IMG/VR virus record: IMGVR_UViG_3300007960_000021
Location: 1-63,451 of that record
DNA from: a virus
Lineage: Duplodnaviria > Caudoviricetes
Direction: 5' to 3' (one strand)
DNA: 63,451 bases
The notes beneath the pieces are model-generated. The model was not told the DNA's origin, made no database searches, and was given only the letters and a program-made list of their open reading frames with translations. Of this stretch, positions 4,206-63,451 are shown one piece after another. The position numbers and the translations under genes were made by a program. Within the stretch, counting starts at the first letter, position 1, and each line of letters starts with the position of its first letter.

Positions 4206-4547
4206 ATGGGGCTGAAAGACGTTGTTGCCATGCAATTCAAGATGCGGAAGGACTTGGGCGACGTAGCGTTTGTCTGTTATCCGCCAGGCATTGGAGCGAG
4301 CGAAAAGGCGGCCCTCAATGAGGCATGCCAGACGCTTGCGGAGGCGACTGGATGCCCTGTCTTCTGCTGTCAGAGCGAAGTGCGATCAGTCGTCGCTGGC
4401 GGCGTCAGATATGACGATACTTCGGACGAGCCGTTCTACTTCGACATCAACGGCATCAGGTTTGGGTACGATTCGCTTGAAGTTGCGAGGCGCGACCAGA
4501 AGTTGGCCGACATGGTCGTGCGGGCGGTGATTGGCAATGGAAAATAA
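4206..4547 (+). CDS. Hypothetical protein
   Basis: ORF in tightly packed + strand run. Confidence 0.5.
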   Translation: MGLKDVVAMQFKMRKDLGDVAFVCYPPGIGASEKAALNEACQTLAEATGCPVFCCQSEVRSVVAGGVRYDDTSDEPFYFDINGIRFGYDSLEVARRDQKLADMVVRAVIGNGK

Positions 4548-5112
4548 GGGTATTGACCGACTATCGGGCGGAGACTTCGAGAAGATCACTGCCGAGGCGC
4601 TTGCCATTGAGTCTGACTGCGGCAGCATTGACTGGGCCAGATACGGCGTGAAGATGTCGTTTCAGCAGGGCAAGTATCGCCCCATTCATTCGATGCCTGA
4701 CTTTGAAGGCGTCATTGCTCCTGGCGGACGCCAGTTTGTCTTTGACTGCAAGGTGTCGTCTGGCCCGTCTCTGAAGATGGACAAGGTGAAGTCGCACCAG
4801 ATGTCATTCATGCTTGGGAGAGAGGCTCGCGGTGCCATCTGCTTCCTGTTCGTCCATTTCAATGCCCGCGAATTGAAGACGAAGTCGGAGCCGCCAGAGA
4901 CGTACGCGATCCCTGTCGCGACGACTCTTGACCTGTGGTACGCATGGGCGCGAGGGGAATTTGACAGCATCAGCAGGTCTGCGGCTGAGGAACATGGCAT
5001 TGCCGTTCCGTGGGTCAAGGCGGAAGGGAAGAGGAAGTATCGCCCGAACATGCTTGAGGCGATCAATGGCTGCCGAGATGTCCTCGACGGTCGTTCAGGG
5101 TACGTTCTTTAG
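4537..5112 (+). CDS. RecU-like Holliday junction resolvase / PD-(D/E)XK nuclease
   Basis: GGDFEK...MPDFEG...FVFDCK...VKSHQ...GAICFLFVHF matches the RecU motif order. Confidence 0.7.
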   Translation: MENKGIDRLSGGDFEKITAEALAIESDCGSIDWARYGVKMSFQQGKYRPIHSMPDFEGVIAPGGRQFVFDCKVSSGPSLKMDKVKSHQMSFMLGREARGAICFLFVHFNARELKTKSEPPETYAIPVATTLDLWYAWARGEFDSISRSAAEEHGIAVPWVKAEGKRKYRPNMLEAINGCRDVLDGRSGYVL

Positions 5113-5115
5113 GAG

Positions 5116-5385
5116 ATGGCGATGATAATTGACGTGTTTGGCTGGATGGGAGTGATGGCGTTAATCGCGGGCATGGTCATTGGCGCCGCCGTGATGGTCG
5201 TTGTCGCTGTGAACGCTGCCTACCGAAACGGAGTCACTGACGGTTACGGATACTTGCGAGAGCCGGGCAATCCGGGCTATCGGAAGGCCGGGCGATATCT
5301 GCTGAAGCACATGTCGCATCGCTGGCCTGAACTCGACTGCGACTGCCCTGGCGAATGCGAAGATTGCAGCGGGGGCAAGCGATGA
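5116..5385 (+). CDS. Small membrane protein
   Basis: N-terminal hydrophobic helix, AGGAG RBS. Confidence 0.55.
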   Translation: MAMIIDVFGWMGVMALIAGMVIGAAVMVVVAVNAAYRNGVTDGYGYLREPGNPGYRKAGRYLLKHMSHRWPELDCDCPGECEDCSGGKR

Positions 5386-5972
5386 TAGTGTGCGATAAGC
5401 CAAGGATCGAGTCGATGCAACTGAGGCTGTTCGACGAGCCCCTGCGTGGTCATGGCCACGTTCGCGTTGTGAGCGGCAACATGGCTGAGACGATGACTGC
5501 CGCGTTCACTGGCGGAACCCGCATCTCCACCGACTCGCGAGCCGACTACTGCCCCGATGTCGTTGCTGAGATCGAAGGGCGAAAGGTCTTCATCGAGTGC
5601 AAGGCTGTGGGTCTCAGTAATGAGACGTTCGTTTACCATGGTCGGCTTGAGAAGGATCGGTTGTTTGCTGCCGAGCACAGTCTGATGTACGCGATCTGGC
5701 GACACAGAGCCGCGACAAAGAAGTGCTCGACCGTCCAGCAGTTGCAAGCTGCGTGGCTGACGAGCCTGGAAGCGGCGTACCTCGTTCCGTTCAAGGACTT
5801 CTTTGACATTGCGATTGGCAGTGGCATTGAGAAGCTGAACTCCGCGTACGGATCGAGCCGGACACAGCCAAAGATGTACGGTTCTGGCTACCGAGTGCGA
5901 CTTGCGAAGCTTGCTGCGTGGAAGGTGCTTGAGTTTGCGAATAATTCCAGAAAACCGCGAACAGCCTATTGA
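5382..5972 (+). CDS. PD-(D/E)XK-family nuclease-like protein
   Basis: GNMAE...CPDV...FIECK. Confidence 0.6.
   Translation: MIVCDKPRIESMQLRLFDEPLRGHGHVRVVSGNMAETMTAAFTGGTRISTDSRADYCPDVVAEIEGRKVFIECKAVGLSNETFVYHGRLEKDRLFAAEHSLMYAIWRHRAATKKCSTVQQLQAAWLTSLEAAYLVPFKDFFDIAIGSGIEKLNSAYGSSRTQPKMYGSGYRVRLAKLAAWKVLEFANNSRKPRTAY
5611..5626 (-). repeat. 16-bp palindrome, perfect copy, reverse orientation, inside CDS
   Basis: GTCTCAGTAATGAGAC on + strand. Confidence 0.95.
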
Positions 5973-5996
5973 CGGCGTTAGCGAATCTGGTAAACT
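5969..5996 (+). promoter_or_regulatory. Sigma70-type promoter
   Basis: TTGACG-N16-TAAACT with extended TG, directly upstream of the structured leader. Confidence 0.6.
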
Positions 5997-6000
5997 GAAG

Positions 6001-6128
6001 GAGCGATGGCAACGCGGCGTCGTAATGAGACATTCGGATGCAATGGTTGCCAGCCTTTGCAACCCCGGCCCTCCCTGAGTCACCACGTCAGCCGACTGCC
6101 ATCGCTGACCTGCAGGGAGGGCTTTTTT
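6001..6128 (+). ncRNA. Candidate C4/CI-like antisense or attenuator RNA ending in a terminator-like hairpin
   Basis: Outer stem 6068-6077/6113-6122 plus T6; inner stem 6087-6092/6104-6109; bulge and loop complementary to 6002-6011, 6149-6157 and 6324-6331. Confidence 0.55.
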
Positions 6129-6501
6129 CGTTTACTGGCTTGCCGCCTGATGGCAGTTGCATTGCAACGGTGGCCAGACAAGCTGACCGAGAAGTCGGCA
6201 AGATACGGCGTAGAATGGCTTGAGCCGTGCCCTGCGGGGCGAATCAGGCCGCAATGAGGCGAAAGCCTTCTGCTTGACGAGGATATTGCCGTTGAGCGGA
6301 AGGTCCTCTGCGTTCCCCAGGGAGTGGTGACAACGTACGGCCTTGGGTCAAGAGCATTGGCGTGGTGGGGTTGGTAGACCTGAGCGTGCCACGTAAAAGA
6401 AGTGCTCAGGCTGCGGGCATTTAGGCATCCAGCATTCCACCATCCACGGATGGGGTTGCTGCGCGCTGAGGGCGCCGTCTGGCGCTGGAAAGGGGTATCC
6501 A

Positions 6502-6972
6502 ATGACCTACGCTGCTGCTGGAGAGGACGCGATTGAGTATCGCGGATGGGTGCTTGAAAGCACTCCTGGGGTTGGGCTGGTTGTGAGTCGCGGCCATGAG
6601 GTAGGGGTCATGCCAAGCATCTCCCATGCCGTGCGGCAGATTGACCGCGTGATTGAGTTGGAGTCGGCTGAATCTGGTTTCACTGGAAAGGGAGTCAAGA
6701 TGAAGGAAATCGTTCTGATGCTCGCTGGCGCAGAAATCATCGCTGGTCTCATTGAGACTGTCGCTGTTGCCGCTGGCGACAAGGACCCGGAAATCGCCAA
6801 GGGCATGAAGACTGCGGCCCGATCCATACGGGTGAACGTGCGGAGCGCCATTGACGAGGCTCGAACCTACTGGAAGCCCGCCGCCGAGCCCGGCAAACAA
6901 TCACCGAGCCTTGACCAGTTTCAGTCGCCCGGCGAACCGGACGACGATCAGCACGAAGAGCATGGAGACTGA
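6502..6972 (+). CDS. Hypothetical protein
   Basis: AAGGGG RBS; possible internal start at MKEIV. Confidence 0.5.
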   Translation: MTYAAAGEDAIEYRGWVLESTPGVGLVVSRGHEVGVMPSISHAVRQIDRVIELESAESGFTGKGVKMKEIVLMLAGAEIIAGLIETVAVAAGDKDPEIAKGMKTAARSIRVNVRSAIDEARTYWKPAAEPGKQSPSLDQFQSPGEPDDDQHEEHGD

Positions 6973-6977
6973 TTGCG

Positions 6978-7244
6978 ATGGGAAGACTTGAAGCCGATGA
7001 CAAGAAGAAGAAGCCGGATAATCCGCTTGCCACCATCGTCGGTGACAACCTGCTGAGATGCAGACGCAAGACCAGGGAGACGATACGAGTCTTGTCGGAA
7101 AGGACTGGCCTGTCTCAGGCGCATCTGTGCGACATGGAAAACGCGAAGAGGAATCCGAGTCTCGCGACGGCTGTGATACTGTCGAAGCATTTCGGCGTCA
7201 GCCTTGACTACTGGACCGTTGACCGCAGGAAGAGAAAGGGGTAA
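6978..7244 (+). CDS. XRE-family HTH regulator
   Basis: LSERTGLSQAHLCDMENAKRNPSLATAVILSKHFGVSLDY. Confidence 0.85.
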   Translation: MGRLEADDKKKKPDNPLATIVGDNLLRCRRKTRETIRVLSERTGLSQAHLCDMENAKRNPSLATAVILSKHFGVSLDYWTVDRRKRKG

Positions 7245-7249
7245 TTGCC

Positions 7250-7606
7250 GTGTCTGAGCAGAGCCTGATTGACCACTCGAAGGCCATGTGCCGCGAGGTC
7301 GTTGTCTATGACATGGAGCATTACGTTGGCCGAGAGGACGAGTTTGAAGTCCAACTCAAGCTCGACACTGCTGCCATGACGAGGCGGATGGAGAACTCGA
7401 CGGTTGCTGCGGATGCTCTTGCGTGGTTCATTGAGTTTCGCGACGGCAAGCTGCACAGCGCTGTCATGCTCGACTGCACGCCGGAGCACTACAACCGGGT
7501 CATGGCGAAGTACAACGGAACGGTTCCCATTCCGGCGACCCCTGGACTCGGACTTGCCAAAAAGTTTCCGCCTGACGACGTTGACACGCTGATCGCGATG
7601 GCCTGA
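7250..7606 (+). CDS. Hypothetical protein
   Basis: ORF in + strand run. Confidence 0.55.
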   Translation: MSEQSLIDHSKAMCREVVVYDMEHYVGREDEFEVQLKLDTAAMTRRMENSTVAADALAWFIEFRDGKLHSAVMLDCTPEHYNRVMAKYNGTVPIPATPGLGLAKKFPPDDVDTLIAMA

Positions 7607-10022: not shown

Positions 10023-10053
10023 AAAGCCGCCGTACCACTACGGCGGCTTTTTT
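10023..10053 (+). terminator. Intrinsic terminator
   Basis: AAAGCCGCCGTA-CCAC-TACGGCGGCTTT followed by TTT. Confidence 0.85.
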
Positions 10054-33573: not shown

Positions 33574-34854
33574 GTGATGTTCAACAAAGCAGACGTGCAG
33601 TTCGCCAGGCTTGCGAAGGATGCCGCGTACTTTCTTGAGGCGGCTGCTGCCGCAAAGGCTGCTGGCAAAAAGCGAGTCGCTTCTCGCATGTTGACGTTGG
33701 CCAAGCGAGCCGGGGCGTCGCAGGCGAAGATCAACAAGATTGACAAGCAGCCGTTTGGCGAGAAGGCGGCGAGGCCGGGCGCTGCAGCCAAGAAGACGGC
33801 AAAAAAGCCTGCCGCAAAGAAGCCTGCTGCGAAGAAGCCTGCGCGTGCAACGAAGAAGGCTTCAACGCCCGCAGAACAGTTGCACATGGACGCAATCTCG
33901 TCGCTAAAGTCTGCCGGGCTGAACGCGCGGAAGCACATGCAAGACGGCAGGGCGCAACTGAGGATCACCGGAGACGACAATGCCGCCGAGAAGAAGCTCA
34001 AGAAAGCTGGGTGGAAGACCAACAGCACCAATGTTCCGTATGGTGGCATGTCAAGCTCCACGATGATGACGTCACCCGACGGAAAAATGCAGGTGAACAT
34101 CCGCAACAAGGGGAGCAATAAGTACTCGACAGTCAGTGTGAAAAAGCTTGCGGGAGGATCGTCCGGCTCTGGCGAGTCGAGCGGCGGAATGACTCCGCAG
34201 CAGACAAAGAAGATTGCGACCTCAATCGTACCCGGTGGCGCAAGCAGGCACGTAGGCACCGATGGTGTAGTGTCGTGGACAAAGAAGGGCGGCTACGCAC
34301 ACAATCAGTTAAAGAGAATGCACGCCGCCTTGAAGGCCAACGGATTTGAGCACGAGAAGTCCAATATGTTCGGCACTCCTGACGGATCGACGGTTGGCGA
34401 CGACACGTACTACAAAGACAAACACGGAAACAAGGTGCAAGTCAGTTCGTCCCTCGGTGCGACGAGTAGCTACAATCGCTACAGTGTCACGTTCACGCCT
34501 GCCGGACACAAGAATTCTGGCCGCACGAAGTCGGCTGGCGACACGACGATATCCAGCAAGGCGCCGAGCGGTAGCATTCTTCGCAAGATGAACTACTCGG
34601 ATCGGGCTGACGTGCAGGACGCGCTCTATGAGGCGAGCGAAGCGACGATGCTTGGCGGTGGATCGTCAACGGGGTACAAGGAAGGCGTGTCGCAGGCCAG
34701 GTCAGCGCTTCAGGCGGCTGCACAGAAGATGATCGACACAGGGCTCGACGCAGAGTCCGTCAATGAGTACCTGTACAATGAGATGTCCAAGGACTACAAG
34801 GACAAAGAGCTTGAGCCGTTCAGGAAGATGCTTTCCGAGGTAACGGGAAGGTAG
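33574..34854 (+). CDS. Tag A protein, basic, unknown cargo domains
   Basis: RLAKDAAYFLEAAAAAKAAGKKRVASRMLTLAKRAGAS plus KKPAA repeats. Confidence 0.7.
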   Translation: MMFNKADVQFARLAKDAAYFLEAAAAAKAAGKKRVASRMLTLAKRAGASQAKINKIDKQPFGEKAARPGAAAKKTAKKPAAKKPAAKKPARATKKASTPAEQLHMDAISSLKSAGLNARKHMQDGRAQLRITGDDNAAEKKLKKAGWKTNSTNVPYGGMSSSTMMTSPDGKMQVNIRNKGSNKYSTVSVKKLAGGSSGSGESSGGMTPQQTKKIATSIVPGGASRHVGTDGVVSWTKKGGYAHNQLKRMHAALKANGFEHEKSNMFGTPDGSTVGDDTYYKDKHGNKVQVSSSLGATSSYNRYSVTFTPAGHKNSGRTKSAGDTTISSKAPSGSILRKMNYSDRADVQDALYEASEATMLGGGSSTGYKEGVSQARSALQAAAQKMIDTGLDAESVNEYLYNEMSKDYKDKELEPFRKMLSEVTGR

Positions 34855-44659: not shown

Positions 44660-44695
44660 AGCCGCCGATCGGGAAACCGGTCGGCGGCTTTTTTT
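44660..44695 (+). terminator. Intrinsic terminator ending the late block
   Basis: AGCCGCCGATCGG-GAAA-CCGGTCGGCGGCT plus T-tract. Confidence 0.88.
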
Positions 44696-45928: not shown

Positions 45929-46726
45929 ATGGCAAAGAAAAAGCTGGACCTTCCAGCTTGCAAGAGCGACCTAGCAGAATTCGTCGCTGTGAATATCAGC
46001 AAGATTCTGCAGTTCCTTGATCCGCGAATAGACCAGGGCGTCTTCGCCGGGTCATTGATCGTCGCGGTGAACGAACTGAGAGGCTCGCGGGACACGATCG
46101 ACGAGGCGTCGGTTATGAGGTCGGCCGCGAACGCCGCGAGGCTTGGCCTTCCGCCTGGAGGCTCAGCCGGTCTGTGCTTCCTTATCGCAAGGAGAAACAG
46201 GGAGTTTCCGAAGAAGGTCTGCACTCTTGAGATAGGCTACAAGGGCTATCTCGACATTGCGTTCACGAACGACTACCTAAAGTTCGTTTACGCAGATGTG
46301 GTGTTTGAAGGGGAGGAGTTCGAGCGGTGGGTCGATGAAACAGGCCCGAAGATTCGGCACAAGCCTAATCTTGACCGCGACGACCTGAACCCCGCGCAGG
46401 TCCGCAAGCTGTATCGCGGTGCGTATTGCATCTGGGAGACGACGCTAGGCGGGCACTGCAATGAGTGGGTCAATCGAAAGCGGATCGAGGCCGTAGATAC
46501 CCACGAAAATGTCTGGAAGTCTGATCCCTACTCGATGATACGGAAGACTCCCGTCAGGCGGGCGTCGAAGTTCTGGAAGATGACGGACAGGCTCGCCCTG
46601 GCGTTGCGAATCGACGGGGAGAATGACGAGTTTAGCGATGGCGCGGCCCCTCTCGACGCTCCTGTCGATGATGGGCCTGGTTTTTCACTTAACGACCTGG
46701 AGGCTGGCGAAGATGAAAATGACTGA
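45929..46726 (+). CDS. recT: RecT-family recombinase (single-strand annealing)
   Basis: AARLGLPP...CFLI...LEIGYKGYL...VVFEGEEF...MIRKTPVRRASK. Confidence 0.85.
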   Translation: MAKKKLDLPACKSDLAEFVAVNISKILQFLDPRIDQGVFAGSLIVAVNELRGSRDTIDEASVMRSAANAARLGLPPGGSAGLCFLIARRNREFPKKVCTLEIGYKGYLDIAFTNDYLKFVYADVVFEGEEFERWVDETGPKIRHKPNLDRDDLNPAQVRKLYRGAYCIWETTLGGHCNEWVNRKRIEAVDTHENVWKSDPYSMIRKTPVRRASKFWKMTDRLALALRIDGENDEFSDGAAPLDAPVDDGPGFSLNDLEAGEDEND

Positions 46727-56315: not shown

Positions 56316-56441
56316 CCTCGCCACGCGAGCGTAATGGCCCCTCTCGCACGCTTTGTGCCATCCGGACGCCTTCCGAGCCGGATTCCCTTTCTGCGTGCTC
56401 TACGCGGCCGTCAGGCGGTCGGTACGCGCGGCAATCCGGCC

Positions 56442-56457
56442 GTCTCAGTAATGAGAC
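56442..56457 (-). repeat. 16-bp palindrome, perfect copy, reverse orientation
   Basis: GTCTCAGTAATGAGAC. Confidence 0.95.
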
Positions 56458-56949
56458 TCGCGTAACAGCACGCCGGATATGAAAATCCCGCGTTTTCAAG
56501 CTTCCGCGTATGGAATGAGTTTAGGGGCGGATCGGCCGAATCCGAAAGCTACGCCGACCGGCCGGAATTCCGCACCACCCATCCAGGGGGGAGGCCCCCA
56601 TACCCCCCGCCAGGTAGGGGTACATCCGTACACGTATTTACAAGCGACTACTTTAAGGGTAGAATCGGGGTTCAACCCGATTCGCTCTTTCTTAATCCGA
56701 GACGTCACCAGCCGACAACGGGCGCGGCGCAAACGGCGCCCCCGCGCGGGGTTCTCCCCGCGCGCCTATCTCGCAGCATTCAAGCTACCGGCACCCCGCA
56801 GTGCGTGACGTTTCGCATCGTAGCAAGCTTCCCCGCATTCCGCAGGAAGCGCGTAAACCGATACCGAAACGGCCGCACATGTGTGCAGTTAGTGCGATAT
56901 AAGTCGCGGGCTAGCCAACCGCAGACACGACCCGTTGCAAAAGCCTTTG

Positions 56950-57610
56950 AAGAGCGGGGATTACCCTTTCGGGTATGAAAGCAATTCCAGGGCAGGCAGA
57001 GCCGAGCGTACCTATCACCACTTGATCCGGAACGAATCAAGCACCGATAAGCGCAGGCCAAAGATGACCGGACCAAGTTGTCCTAGTAGTCGAGGTGACG
57101 TTCACAAAGCTAGTAGACCTACTCTTCAATGAGTTGAGTTCAGCCAACGTCCCATCGGGACGGGCAACATGGCAAGAGGGTATGAAAAGCGCCGACTTCC
57201 ACAGGAAAGAAACGGACCCCAACGATCCACCGGATCGCCATAACGCCCAAAAGAACTTGACGACGACTTGAACGATATGACAGCGCGGTAGGCCGGGAAA
57301 GCAGTCCACGTAGACAAGACAGGGCATTCGCAACATCGCATGAGATACGCGGTGTCCGATATGCGTGACGTTTCCTGGTTGGGCAAAGCGGTCGAAACTC
57401 AAGTCGCATCATTACGGCAGGGGATGTTCGGAAAAACGACAAGGAAGTGCGTGCAGTTCGCGGAAACGAACGAATCGCGATAGTCGCCAGCATTCACCGT
57501 CAAGACGAAACTCATTGAGGCCACTTGTGAGGCGTAGGTTAGAGGTTATCCGAACGCGCTACGGCGCGCGGGACCGATAGCATACTAGCGAAGAATCGAA
57601 CTTAAAATCG
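56950..57610 (+). ncRNA. Candidate large structured non-coding RNA (~650 nt; ends approximate)
   Basis: No credible ORF; six nested long-range helices with G-U pairs favouring the + strand, plus local hairpins. Confidence 0.65.
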
Positions 57611-57720
57611 AATTGCCCGCCATGCGTGACGTATCGCGGGTAATGCAACCGTTTGGCATCGGTTGCCTGATGATGACAGCCAAAGTTCAGTTTCCAGTTT
57701 CTTTGCGAGGAGTTTCAGTT

Positions 57721-58110: not shown

Positions 58111-58143
58111 AGTTTTCAGTTTTCTATGCGAGGAATTACAGCG

Positions 58144-59301
58144 ATGGCAAAGGCAACCAAGAGCAGCAGCGGCACCGTCAATGCGATGAATCTCACCGTC
58201 AAGGCGGTCAAGGTAAACAAACGGCTCAGCCGCGAGACTGATTGCTTCAGTGCGAGCATTTACCTCGACGGCAAGAAGGTCGGGACGGTTATCAACGAAG
58301 GATCGGGCGGCCCGAACTTCTATGAGTGGAGTTCGCAATCGCAAGGCCGCGACATTGAAGCATTTGCAAAGTCGATCGGCAAGTTTCAATTCGGCGAGGG
58401 AGAGGACGCCTTTGAGTTGAGTTACGACCTCGACCTCCTGATTGAAGACATCATCTGTGGCGAGACGGCGCAGCAAGTCGTCGATAAAGTCGCGCAGTAC
58501 AACGCCAGCAAGAGCAAGAGCAAGAAGTCCGAAGTGAGTGAAGTTTCCGTTTCCAAGTCCAAGTCCAAGAAGGGGAATGAGATGAGTTCCAAGTCCAAGT
58601 CGTCCGCTACCGTTACCGTTTCCGAGTCCAAGAGCAAGAAGGAAGACAAGATGACCAAGACTGAGACCGCAGTGAGTGTCGTTTCCGCCCGCGATGGCAT
58701 CATCGAACGGCTCGCCGCAGAGTTCGCGCCGCATGAATTCCACTTGTCCAGCAATCCGGAATCGCGACGCGCCAAGAAGATCGACGACGTCGGCCCCGTC
58801 TACTTGTGGGACGACAATGCCGCAGTGCGTGACGTTATGGGCCAATTGACGATCGACGGCACGGTCACGAAGCCGCAGATCACGGATGAACTCACGGAAG
58901 AGGCGTTCACGACGTACAAGAAGTGCGTGAAGTACTTCCTCGCTTGCCGCGAGGAACTCGTCGGAGAGGACGCCGACACAGTCGGAGAGTACGTAGCGGC
59001 GGATGATGATGCTGCTGCTGCTGAGCACTCCCCTCGGCACACCTACCGAGTTCCCGAACCGGAACTGGGTGAAGTTAGCCGAGAGAAGGCCGACGTCACG
59101 GTTACGATTCGCACGATCGGCGGGAACACCAAGAACTTCCGTGCGATGAGTTTCGTCCAAGGTGAGGAGGTTTGCGTAGTCGAAACGAAGGACACGGAGT
59201 TCAAGTTCCGCCGGGCGCGCACGATCGACGTGCGTGACGTTAAGGGCGAGAAGGTCCGCCGTCTCCGCATTCCGGCCGACGCAATCGTCCGCGTCGGCTA
59301 G
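58144..59301 (+). CDS. Multidomain early protein
   Basis: N-terminal SRETDCFSASIYLDGKKVG...NEGSGG domain; SKSKSKK linkers; C-terminal RTIGGN paralog domain. Confidence 0.7.
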   Translation: MAKATKSSSGTVNAMNLTVKAVKVNKRLSRETDCFSASIYLDGKKVGTVINEGSGGPNFYEWSSQSQGRDIEAFAKSIGKFQFGEGEDAFELSYDLDLLIEDIICGETAQQVVDKVAQYNASKSKSKKSEVSEVSVSKSKSKKGNEMSSKSKSSATVTVSESKSKKEDKMTKTETAVSVVSARDGIIERLAAEFAPHEFHLSSNPESRRAKKIDDVGPVYLWDDNAAVRDVMGQLTIDGTVTKPQITDELTEEAFTTYKKCVKYFLACREELVGEDADTVGEYVAADDDAAAAEHSPRHTYRVPEPELGEVSREKADVTVTIRTIGGNTKNFRAMSFVQGEEVCVVETKDTEFKFRRARTIDVRDVKGEKVRRLRIPADAIVRVG

Positions 59302-60377: not shown

Positions 60378-60443
60378 GGGCGTCAGTGCGTGTCGTTACG
60401 GTTCGTTTTGTTTGTTTCACAGCTTAGACAGAGAGATTTAGCG

Positions 60444-60659
60444 ATGGCGAAGAAAGCAGTAAAGAAGGCGACGACGAAGAAGAAGCTGGTCGGCGTCACG
60501 ATGTCCGAATGGAACGGCAAGCCGATGATGATACTTGGTGATCCGGAGTCGCGGTTTCCGTTTCAATTCCAGAAGCACAAGGCGCAGTTGATCCTCGATG
60601 CCATCGAGAAGAACGGAGTCGAAGCGTTCAAGGATGCGCTACGCAAGGTCATTGGCTGA
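60444..60659 (+). CDS. Small hypothetical protein
   Basis: EWNGKPM...RFPFQF...KAQLIL. Confidence 0.6.
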   Translation: MAKKAVKKATTKKKLVGVTMSEWNGKPMMILGDPESRFPFQFQKHKAQLILDAIEKNGVEAFKDALRKVIG

Positions 60660-60679: not shown

Positions 60680-60716
60680 AGGGGCGGTCGGCAGTCCGGC
60701 CGCCCCTTTTTGTTTT
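60680..60716 (+). terminator. Intrinsic terminator-like hairpin
   Basis: GGGGCGGTCGG-CAGT-CCGGCCGCCCC followed by TTTTTGTTTT. Confidence 0.7.
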
Positions 60717-62701: not shown

Positions 62702-63379
62702 ATGGACATGAAGACGATCGAGAAGCGACAACTCACGAATCCCCGCGACGGCAAGGTCATTTTGACCGACATGGACGACGTAGCGGCGATTACCGAACTG
62801 CGTGCAGTTCCAGGGGAGTTCCCGAAGAGTTTGATTACGTCCTTCGACACAAAGGGCAGGCTCTCGGAGTCTCAATGGTTCTGGGCGCACAAGCTTGTCC
62901 TCGACAACCGCCGCAAGGCGTCAAGCGTTTCGTCTGGCGGCGATATGCTCAAGCCGGGGTCGCACGCCAGAATCTCGCAGCTCTTTGACACGGCGGCGGA
63001 AGGCGGACTGAAGCGTCCCCGCATCACCATTCGGCACAACGAGCATGAGCTTCTGTTTACCATTGCCGGATCGGGGTCGAAGTTTCCCGGCGCCGTCAAC
63101 GTCATGTCGCCGGGAGCGTTTGGAGAGCGGACTTGGTTCGGGCGGCTTCTTGACAGCGACTTGCTCCACCGGAGCGCGGATTGCACGGACGCAATCGCAG
63201 GGATCGTCGCGGAGTTCGCGGATGACCCGATTGAGTTCGCGGCGACGCACGGAAGGCGATCGGGGTTCTGCTGCTTTTGCGGCAGAGAGTTGACGACCGA
63301 CGAGAGCACTTCGGTCGGATATGGCCCGGTATGCGCCGAGCGATGGGGGCTTCCTTGGGGGAGCAAGACGGCGAGCTAG
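62702..63379 (+). CDS. DUF6011-like Zn-finger protein
   Basis: CCFCGRELTTDESTSVGYGPVCAERWG. Confidence 0.7.
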   Translation: MDMKTIEKRQLTNPRDGKVILTDMDDVAAITELRAVPGEFPKSLITSFDTKGRLSESQWFWAHKLVLDNRRKASSVSSGGDMLKPGSHARISQLFDTAAEGGLKRPRITIRHNEHELLFTIAGSGSKFPGAVNVMSPGAFGERTWFGRLLDSDLLHRSADCTDAIAGIVAEFADDPIEFAATHGRRSGFCCFCGRELTTDESTSVGYGPVCAERWGLPWGSKTAS

Positions 63380-63433
63380 TTGGTACAATTACTTGGTTTC
63401 GTTTCGCGTGTTCTTTAGCAAAAGGGGTTAGCG

Positions 63434-63451
63434 ATGGCAGTTGGCGAGAAG
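63434..63451 (+). CDS. Start of a 3'-truncated gene (MAVGEK...)
   Basis: AAGGGG RBS and ATG at the window edge. Confidence 0.45.

Follow-up and report, generated by a model that had tools for sequence, protein, structure and literature searches.

To our knowledge, control of phage genes in trans has been established for few phage RNAs, almost all of them from model phages of enteric bacteria. The c4 RNA is said to cover a ribosome-binding site, and the target of P1 c4 reportedly lies just downstream of it in the same operon. Bacterial sRNAs of the DapZ and MicL type reportedly share the terminator of an mRNA, start at a promoter of their own near the 3′ end of the upstream gene, and use a seed that lies 5′ of the terminator hairpin. 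In the description available for P1 and P7, c4 (immI), a small RNA, uses short stretches of complementarity to act in trans on a phage mRNA and blocks icd/ant expression (PMC8198154). The CI RNA of P4 is described as pairing with two sequences, seqA and seqC, which lie upstream and downstream of the CI RNA (PMC4825925). A further account presents P22 sar as a block to initiation of ant translation, and VpdS of VP882 and PreS of lambda as stand-alone phage sRNA genes whose products pair in trans, VpdS affecting phage as well as host mRNAs (PMC12197685). Terminator loops of sRNAs have been reported in the control of fepA, in the words of that report 'likely without base-pairing' (PMC11979758). 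At the level of sequence motifs, the SAS of Cluster K phages is described as a short asymmetric motif found at many start codons, nearly always in the same orientation, each K1 genome having just one copy in reverse (PMC3203893); its role is called unknown in the accounts that we cite (PMC3203893, PMC11373665, PMC12699233).

Here we analyse a virus record of 63,451 nt, the whole of which we call the window, in which a predicted hairpin near 6.1 kb is complementary over 21 nt to a translation initiation region at 63.4 kb. Antisense and trans-acting phage RNAs are already known (c4, CI, sar, OOP, VpdS), and the candidate would be a new, unrelated member of this group; its unusual feature would be a pairing region placed at the tip of an enlarged terminator.

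The likeness to c4, a small phage RNA that pairs with a phage mRNA in trans, is for the candidate only predicted, and there are clear differences: the candidate target is 57 kb away in the record as cut, the antisense sequence is a single block of 21 nt placed in the tip of a terminator hairpin, and the Rfam C4 model gives no match. With P4 CI the candidate shares a sense-antisense-sense (A-B-C) layout at 6002-6011, 6091-6111 and 6148-6159, that is, an antisense segment with a sense copy on either side. However, P4 uses premature transcription termination and an RNA cut from a longer transcript, whereas the strongest partner of the candidate is a distant initiation region, and Rfam detects neither sequence nor structure homology between them. 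Like sar, lambda OOP and aQ, phage RNAs described as pairing with, and so repressing, a phage gene (PMC12197685), the candidate would act on a gene of its own phage; those RNAs are cis-encoded on the opposite strand and fully complementary, while the candidate lies on the same strand as its target and is encoded elsewhere. VpdS and PreS differ in being Hfq-dependent and in using short imperfect seeds, the PreS target being a host gene, whereas here the match is long and the target belongs to the phage. The arrangement resembles that of DapZ and MicL in that the candidate promoter overlaps the end of the upstream coding region and the RNA would end at the operon terminator, but the seed would be the tip of the terminator hairpin itself.

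Materials and methods

The window is the complete IMG/VR record IMGVR_UViG_3300007960_000021 (linear class; CheckV completeness 79%; 57.8% G+C). Genes were placed with a simple codon-usage gene caller of our own. RNA-RNA interactions were scored with a self-written, helix-only model, in which the stacking energy of the duplex is added to the cost of opening both RNAs, obtained from ViennaRNA unpaired probabilities. Unlimited-length duplex folding produced long, loop-rich duplexes; it was dropped for ranking and the helix model was used instead. In the helix model the fixed query was 6001-6128 (128 nt). An alignment of 21 nuclease-like proteins served as the query for related loci.

Gene content of the record

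The caller placed 73 genes, all on the + strand, and left 6.8% of the window non-coding. Recognisable products are a RecU-like resolvase, a small HTH_3 protein, a DUF6011 protein, a major head protein, a helicase, RecT and a DUF3799 nuclease. No tRNA was found in the window and no lysogeny gene among the 50 proteins scanned (of the 73 called). The 5′ end of the record is cut inside the gene for the terminase large subunit (2-1645). Because the record starts inside this gene, the gene at 63434 should precede the missing stretch that runs into it. A contig on record, 93,938 nt long and so above the ∼80 kb implied by the CheckV value, carries both the full-length terminase (707 aa) and the protein encoded at 6502-6972. 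The features discussed below are collected in Table 1.

Table 1. Positions of the features discussed, numbered from the first nucleotide of the window
Feature	Position	Strand	Description
Nuclease-like gene	5415-5972	+	Upstream of the sRNA candidate
Sigma-70-like promoter	5969-5996	+	TTGACG, 16 nt, TAAACT; TG before the −10 hexamer (extended −10)
Upstream sense copy AGCGATGGCA	6002-6011	+	Exact complement of 6097-6106 (10-nt inverted repeat, 100%)
Candidate small RNA, ∼125 nt	6003-6128	+	Predicted start to T-run
Predicted intrinsic terminator	6067-6128	+	10-11 bp G+C-rich outer stem, 35-nt insert, T6 at 6123-6128
Antisense segment	6091-6111	+	Apical loop CUGCCA, 3′ strand of inner stem, 2 further nt
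Downstream sense copy TGATGGCAGTTG	6148-6159	+	Pairs with 6093-6104: 9 Watson-Crick, 12 with G-U
HTH_3 regulator gene	6978-7244	+	In the unit downstream of the terminator, after 6502-6972
Distant target site	63425-63445	+	3 G of the Shine-Dalgarno, spacer, ATG, codons 2-4
Putative gene start, MAVGEK...	63434-63451	+	ORF ends with the record after 6 codons
Shorter match CAGCGATGGCA	58139-58149	+	
Shorter match TTAGCGATGGCG	60438-60449, also 46632-46643	+	
Shorter match AGCGATGGCA	1961, 16659, 6002	+	
AGCGATGGC copies	58139-58149; others begin 1961, 6002, 16098, 16659, 46634, 60440, 63430	+	
Other terminators	10026-10047, 44661-44688, 60681-60706	+	Plain 9-12 bp stems, 4-nt loops
Palindrome sites, 16 nt each	1605, 5611, 7609, 10058, 18450, 25506, 30461, 37699, 44593, 47673, 52663, 56442, 61174		

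A candidate small RNA at 6.1 kb

The 529 nt that separate the nuclease-like gene from the gene at 6502 are without coding signal in any frame, and across 6000-6480 a coding signal is absent from all six frames. An ORF at 6006-6257 was considered as a gene or leader peptide and rejected; it scores −0.14 per codon, where the minimum for called genes is 0.04, and its GGAG lies only 2 nt before the ATG. The promoter-like site in front of the element matches at 9 of 12 positions and is the sole such site in 5300-7300, a match to the consensus only. It overlaps the TGA stop of the upstream gene and gives a predicted transcription start at ∼6002-6004. On the + strand, 12 sites of this kind occur in the window, four of them within the non-coding fraction, and this enrichment suggests that promoters of this type are in use.

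The predicted terminator hairpin begins ∼65 nt 3′ of the predicted transcript start. Its outer stem pairs 6068-6077 with 6113-6122 (10 bp, perfect), and the hairpin energy is −29.7 kcal/mol. The stem is directly followed by a T-run on the + strand, as in an intrinsic terminator, and by none on the − strand. Four convincing + strand terminators are present in the window, and only this one carries a 35-nt insert. The insert holds an inner hairpin (6087-6092 with 6104-6109) and, by structure prediction, displays the antisense segment at the hairpin tip, the apical loop (6096-6101) having a predicted unpaired probability of ∼0.9. For the candidate RNA as a whole the minimum free energy (MFE) is −55.1 kcal/mol (z = −3.55), a value equalled by none of 200 shuffles. 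The 370 nt 3′ of the terminator are likewise non-coding and structured.

A scan of the whole window with Rfam 15 gave no match at the gathering score, the C4 and IsrK/SeqA-type models included, and when E values up to 5 were allowed for 5900-6560 only SAM_alpha appeared, at 17.2 bits against a gathering score of 36. With a promoter-like site of its own, a terminator and no coding capacity, 6003-6128 has these features of a stand-alone sRNA gene. The first-pass annotation of this DNA had suggested an sRNA here, and the predicted anatomy of the 6.0-6.13 kb element (promoter-like site, terminator, fold, lack of coding signal) does fit a small non-coding transcript.

Predicted pairing with a distant initiation region

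The segment GCCGACTGCCATCGCTGACCT at 6091-6111 pairs antiparallel with GGGTTAGCGATGGCAGTTGGC at 63425-63445. The 21-nt contiguous pairing reported by the first-pass annotation was confirmed on recounting, with 18 Watson-Crick and 3 G-U pairs at 21 of 21 positions. Along the duplex there are 3 Watson-Crick pairs, a G-U, 12 Watson-Crick pairs, a G-U, 3 Watson-Crick pairs and a final G-U, giving an exact Watson-Crick core of 12 nt, and all three non-Watson-Crick positions are G-U in the sense of + RNA to + RNA. The complementarity ends sharply, the adjoining position being mismatched on both sides and only 1 of 7 tested positions per side being able to pair.

The target has a GGGG Shine-Dalgarno at 63424-63427 and an ATG at 63434-63436, separated by a 6-nt spacer. 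We take 63434 as a gene start because of this Shine-Dalgarno spacing and because it carries the recurrent start motif described below. The duplex would cover 3 of the 4 G of the Shine-Dalgarno, the entire spacer, the ATG and 9 further bases (codons 2-4), with the CAT at 6100-6102 opposite the target ATG. It does therefore extend over part of the Shine-Dalgarno and over the start codon, as had been claimed for it.

Two shorter sense copies of the target sequence flank the hairpin. The upstream copy coincides with the 5′ end predicted for the transcript; in the MFE structure it pairs with 6046-6060. The downstream copy contains GATGGCAGT at 6149-6157, which makes 9 exact pairs with the loop, and 11 of its bases are identical to the distant target (63433-63443). 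From the genome's own frequency of such complements, the chance of finding both flanking copies is ∼4.7 × 10−4, and they are a second coincidence, independent of the distant match. The upstream copy falls within the 12-mer GGAGCGATGGCA, which occurs twice in the window: at 1959 it forms the Shine-Dalgarno and spacer for the start at 1970, and at 6000 it has no gene behind it.

Rarity and energetics of the match

In the helix model, the 63434 site scores −21.6 kcal/mol (hybrid −41.3; opening 11.8 and 7.8). With the same query, the next of 74 start regions scores −7.9 kcal/mol and the next of 2104 genome tiles −9.3 kcal/mol, the 1% quantile of the tiles being −7.8 kcal/mol. Dinucleotide-shuffled queries did not reach −21.6 kcal/mol in any of 300 cases (mean −9.4, sd 1.9, minimum −16.0), and neither did real 128-nt segments of the same genome (0 of 189 on the + strand, 0 of 187 on the − strand; minimum −15.7). 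No control, among 300 shuffles and 376 real segments, came within 5 kcal/mol of the 63434 site. A pairing energy that did not stand out among start regions had been named in advance as counting against the proposal; in the helix model the energy at 63434 is instead extreme among the 74 starts, the 2104 tiles and all shuffled and real controls. The second-longest + strand run for the query 6001-6128 is 15 nt, and when the target 21-mer was searched with up to 3 mismatches the hairpin was the only match, 100 shuffles averaging 0.00 matches.

The length of the match is not, on its own, unique in the window. When all + RNA was compared with all + RNA, there were 6 contiguous G-U-tolerant runs of at least 21 nt, of which 2 come from a palindromic repeat family and 3 are coding-region coincidences (17, 12 and 10 Watson-Crick pairs), so that at least three of the six arise by plain chance. 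What is rare is the combination of an sRNA-like hairpin as one partner with a start region as the other. Our own arithmetic from the run counts gives p values from ∼0.001, for the module 6001-6128 against any start region, to ∼0.04, when any non-coding stretch may serve as the query. Taking the shared 10-mer as given, the probability of its extension to 21 nt is ∼10−3 (again our own arithmetic, 12 × 0.378^11 per site, 5 sites). If the match were nevertheless due to chance, the lesson would be that 21-nt G-U-tolerant matches are not rare in 63 kb, with 6 here, and that a query-specific test is needed.

A nested cofold model, which cannot hold the outer stem while the loop pairs, gave ΔΔG = −9.5 for 63434, not an outlier; ten other starts had values from −9.8 to −13.0, and the 21-bp duplex was unused. 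To judge from this result, a hairpin of high stability competes with formation of the full duplex. The 21-mer is for the most part buried, and 11.8 kcal/mol are needed to open all of it (rank 42 of 108), against 1.0 kcal/mol for the 7-nt window 6095-6101. Formation of two helical turns within the closed loop would, we infer, require breathing of the outer stem.

A sequence motif at phage start codons

The core of the target belongs to a recurrent motif. AGCGATGGC has 9 matches on the two strands against 0.92 expected; 8 are on the + strand, and the sole − strand copy is the hairpin. Five of the copies are on scanned starts, four of them starts of called genes (16102, 16663, 58144 and 60444) and the fifth that at 63434. 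The remaining copies are at an in-frame ATG (46638), in the Shine-Dalgarno and spacer of the start at 1970, and at the non-genic position 6002. The caution in the first-pass annotation that the shared sequence may partly reflect start-context bias was well placed, as AGCGATGGC is over-represented at starts. The + strand carries 5 copies of GATGGCAG and the − strand 4.

The shorter matches at other starts that the annotation listed are all present in the window. However, these starts share only 9-12 nt with the hairpin, their scores of ∼−6 kcal/mol are within background, and after opening costs the other motif starts bind through the 7-nt loop only in the helix model. The original proposal was an sRNA that silences one or several phage genes; its single-target form, directed at 63434, is retained as a prediction on the strength of the energy outlier and the sRNA-like anatomy, and its several-target form is not upheld by these background-level scores.

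The distribution of AGCGATGGC, with 8 forward copies and 1 reverse, resembles that of SAS. It differs from SAS in sequence, in spanning the ATG and in its smaller number of copies, and it does not conform to the 13-bp SAS consensus, which is placed just upstream of starts in the account given in PMC3203893. The comparison is an analogy only. Mycobacteriophage Adephagia has 16 forward SAS copies and 1 reverse copy, the latter in the apical loop of a ∼20 bp hairpin within the 430-nt non-coding gap between gp92 and gp93 (record ∼58661-58711), a gap in which late transcription is reported to start (PMC11373665). In the sequence that we examined (L005) this hairpin is at 33662-33712 on the transcribed strand, and its loop is the SAS complement including the AGGAG core. 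A general 'anti-SAS hairpin' in Cluster K was considered and rejected, since it was found in Adephagia only, Pixie and TM4 being without a comparable reverse copy. Both of these phages do have SAS, so SAS as a class does not depend on a reverse copy.

By analogy, the Adephagia hairpin is a hint towards a wider role for the hairpin tip, as an 'anti-start-motif' RNA. The AGCGATGGC-marked starts would then be titrated as a group, with 63434 as the high-affinity member and decoys beside the RNA's own gene. The marked set would comprise 16102, 16663, 58144, 60444 and 63434, and possibly the in-frame ATG at 46638. We regard this as quite improbable. Were it true, start-associated sequence motifs in phages would for the first time have a mechanism.

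A proposed regulatory RNA and its alternatives

We consider it plausible, if slightly short of an even chance, that a trans-acting antisense RNA of ∼125 nt represses the gene at 63434. We infer that such an RNA would be transcribed from its own promoter at the end of the upstream nuclease-like gene, whose stop codon that promoter overlaps, and that it would end at the terminator of the upstream transcription unit. This terminator, enlarged by the 35-nt insert, would display CUGCCAU at its tip, and in vivo the loop would nucleate on the AUGGCAG at the 63434 start codon. From there the duplex would grow to 21 bp, taking in the Shine-Dalgarno and codons 1-4, and would block 30S binding, resulting in translational repression and possibly then in mRNA decay. 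The flanking copies at 6002-6011 and 6148-6159 might act as internal partners or decoys that set the level of free loop, or as sites of autoregulation. sRNAs block initiation at initiation regions, and the 63434 target site is positioned exactly there. For pairing with initiation regions or leaders of phage genes, the RNAs sar, c4 and P4 CI are precedents.

If correct, this would be an example of a terminator hairpin enlarged to carry a pairing region, and control of this kind in an uncultivated freshwater phage without known relatives would show that it is widespread. It would also tie a start-codon-associated motif to an RNA regulator, a matter that has been open for mycobacteriophage SAS since 2011 according to the sources cited here (PMC3203893, PMC11373665).

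The main competing account is chance: an ordinary terminator whose loop holds the reverse complement of a frequent start context, one start among several extending the match. Three of the six runs of at least 21 nt in the window are indeed plain coding coincidences, the exact Watson-Crick core is only 12 nt, its 9-mer occurs 8 times on the + strand, the core 9-10 nt being a common start context of the phage, and the nested cofold model has no outlier. Yet none of the 300 shuffles or 376 real segments comes within 5 kcal/mol when the hairpin is the fixed query, extension of the shared 10-mer to 21 nt has p ∼10−3, the insert is unique among the four terminators, and the two local sense copies are an independent coincidence at ∼5 × 10−4. 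On balance we think chance a rather unlikely explanation, though one that deserves weight. The same local copies, carried by the same transcript or a sister one, could instead be the real partners of the loop, in a switch of the P4 CI kind to which the 63.4 kb site would be extra or incidental. On this view, pairing would decide between termination and read-through at 6123-6128 and in this way control expression of the genes that follow (6502-6972, the HTH gene at 6978-7244 and further genes to ∼10000). Complements of the loop both upstream (10 nt exact) and downstream (9 Watson-Crick, 12 with G-U), at the joint chance given above, are what such a switch would have, and the downstream unit contains an HTH_3 regulator gene behind 370 nt of non-coding, structured sequence. 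However, the local matches fall far short of the distant one in length, and neither copy touches the outer stem that abuts the T-run, so that pairing with them alone would not prevent terminator formation. The lack of any Rfam match, whether to C4, to IsrK/SeqA-type models or to another family, and of lysogeny genes among the 50 scanned proteins also speaks against a local switch, which we judge unlikely.

An account without RNA function would take the antisense segment as what remains of an inverted duplication that involved the 63434 initiation region, or would take both 21-mers as DNA sites for one protein able to bind in either orientation. At the DNA level the two sites form an inverted repeat of 21 bp in which 3 positions are mismatched, and the presence of GATGGCAG on both strands (5 + and 4 −) would be in keeping with protein binding. 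But all three differences are transitions that keep G-U in the + to + sense, for which we calculate a chance of 1 in 8, and the copy is at a hairpin tip and not in a promoter. The motif is, moreover, strand-biased 8 to 1 and tied to the ATG, which argues for a meaning at the level of RNA or translation. We hold an account of this kind, without RNA function, to be highly improbable.

Relatives and sequence variation

Scans of viral contigs with the single proteins encoded at 6502-6972, 62708-63379 and 4537-5112 found no relatives, and nor did a scan of metagenome contigs with 62708-63379. Exact scans of viral contigs with a 23-mer of the hairpin and a 22-mer of the target gave no match, as did blastn of two stretches of the window against a phage collection. 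For the protein of 6502-6972, the only homologue on record is itself; the next relative of the terminase is at most 46% identical, and the nuclease-like protein (5415-5972) has 22 homologues, all at 51% identity or less. This protein is without a Pfam or PHROG match, and its homologues have invariant D, E and K residues in a PD-(D/E)xK nuclease-like pattern (YCPD...ExK).

The alignment of nuclease-like proteins located 3 viral loci, in which the regions downstream are unrelated to the window, and retrieved nothing from genome contigs. The sRNA element is absent from these three nearest viral contigs. A 41-nt match of 76% identity (E = 0.03) to the sRNA DNA in the whole records of the 3 loci was rejected, since it is inside an ORF and without the hairpin.

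The region 5400-6700 was recovered in 13 contig pieces from 4 other metagenome runs (four studies) with no differences, cover of the hairpin being partial in three of the runs. Runs with the identical region include a freshwater metagenome (2017), an oyster metagenome (2025) and an unlabelled 2025 study. Among the runs listed with this sequence there was no RNA run. Either the phage is strikingly clonal across studies or the sequence is a shared contaminant.

Other features of the window

A stretch of ∼1.4 kb at 56316-57720 is without called genes. It contains a promoter-like site (56637-56665), a copy of the palindrome described below (56442) and a 22-nt direct repeat present three times (56795, 57355 and 57616), and no Rfam family reaches threshold there. 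This stretch may serve as an origin or in regulation.

A 16-bp near-palindrome, GTCTCA-GTAA-TGAGAC, is present at 13 sites in the window, in both orientations. Allowing up to 2 mismatches gives 26 strand matches where 0.05 are expected; of the 10 perfect copies, 8 lie within intergenic gaps or at their edges. The palindrome probably serves as an operator or as a hairpin signal in RNA. A shortened copy, GTAATGAGAC, is found within the sRNA candidate at 6022-6031.
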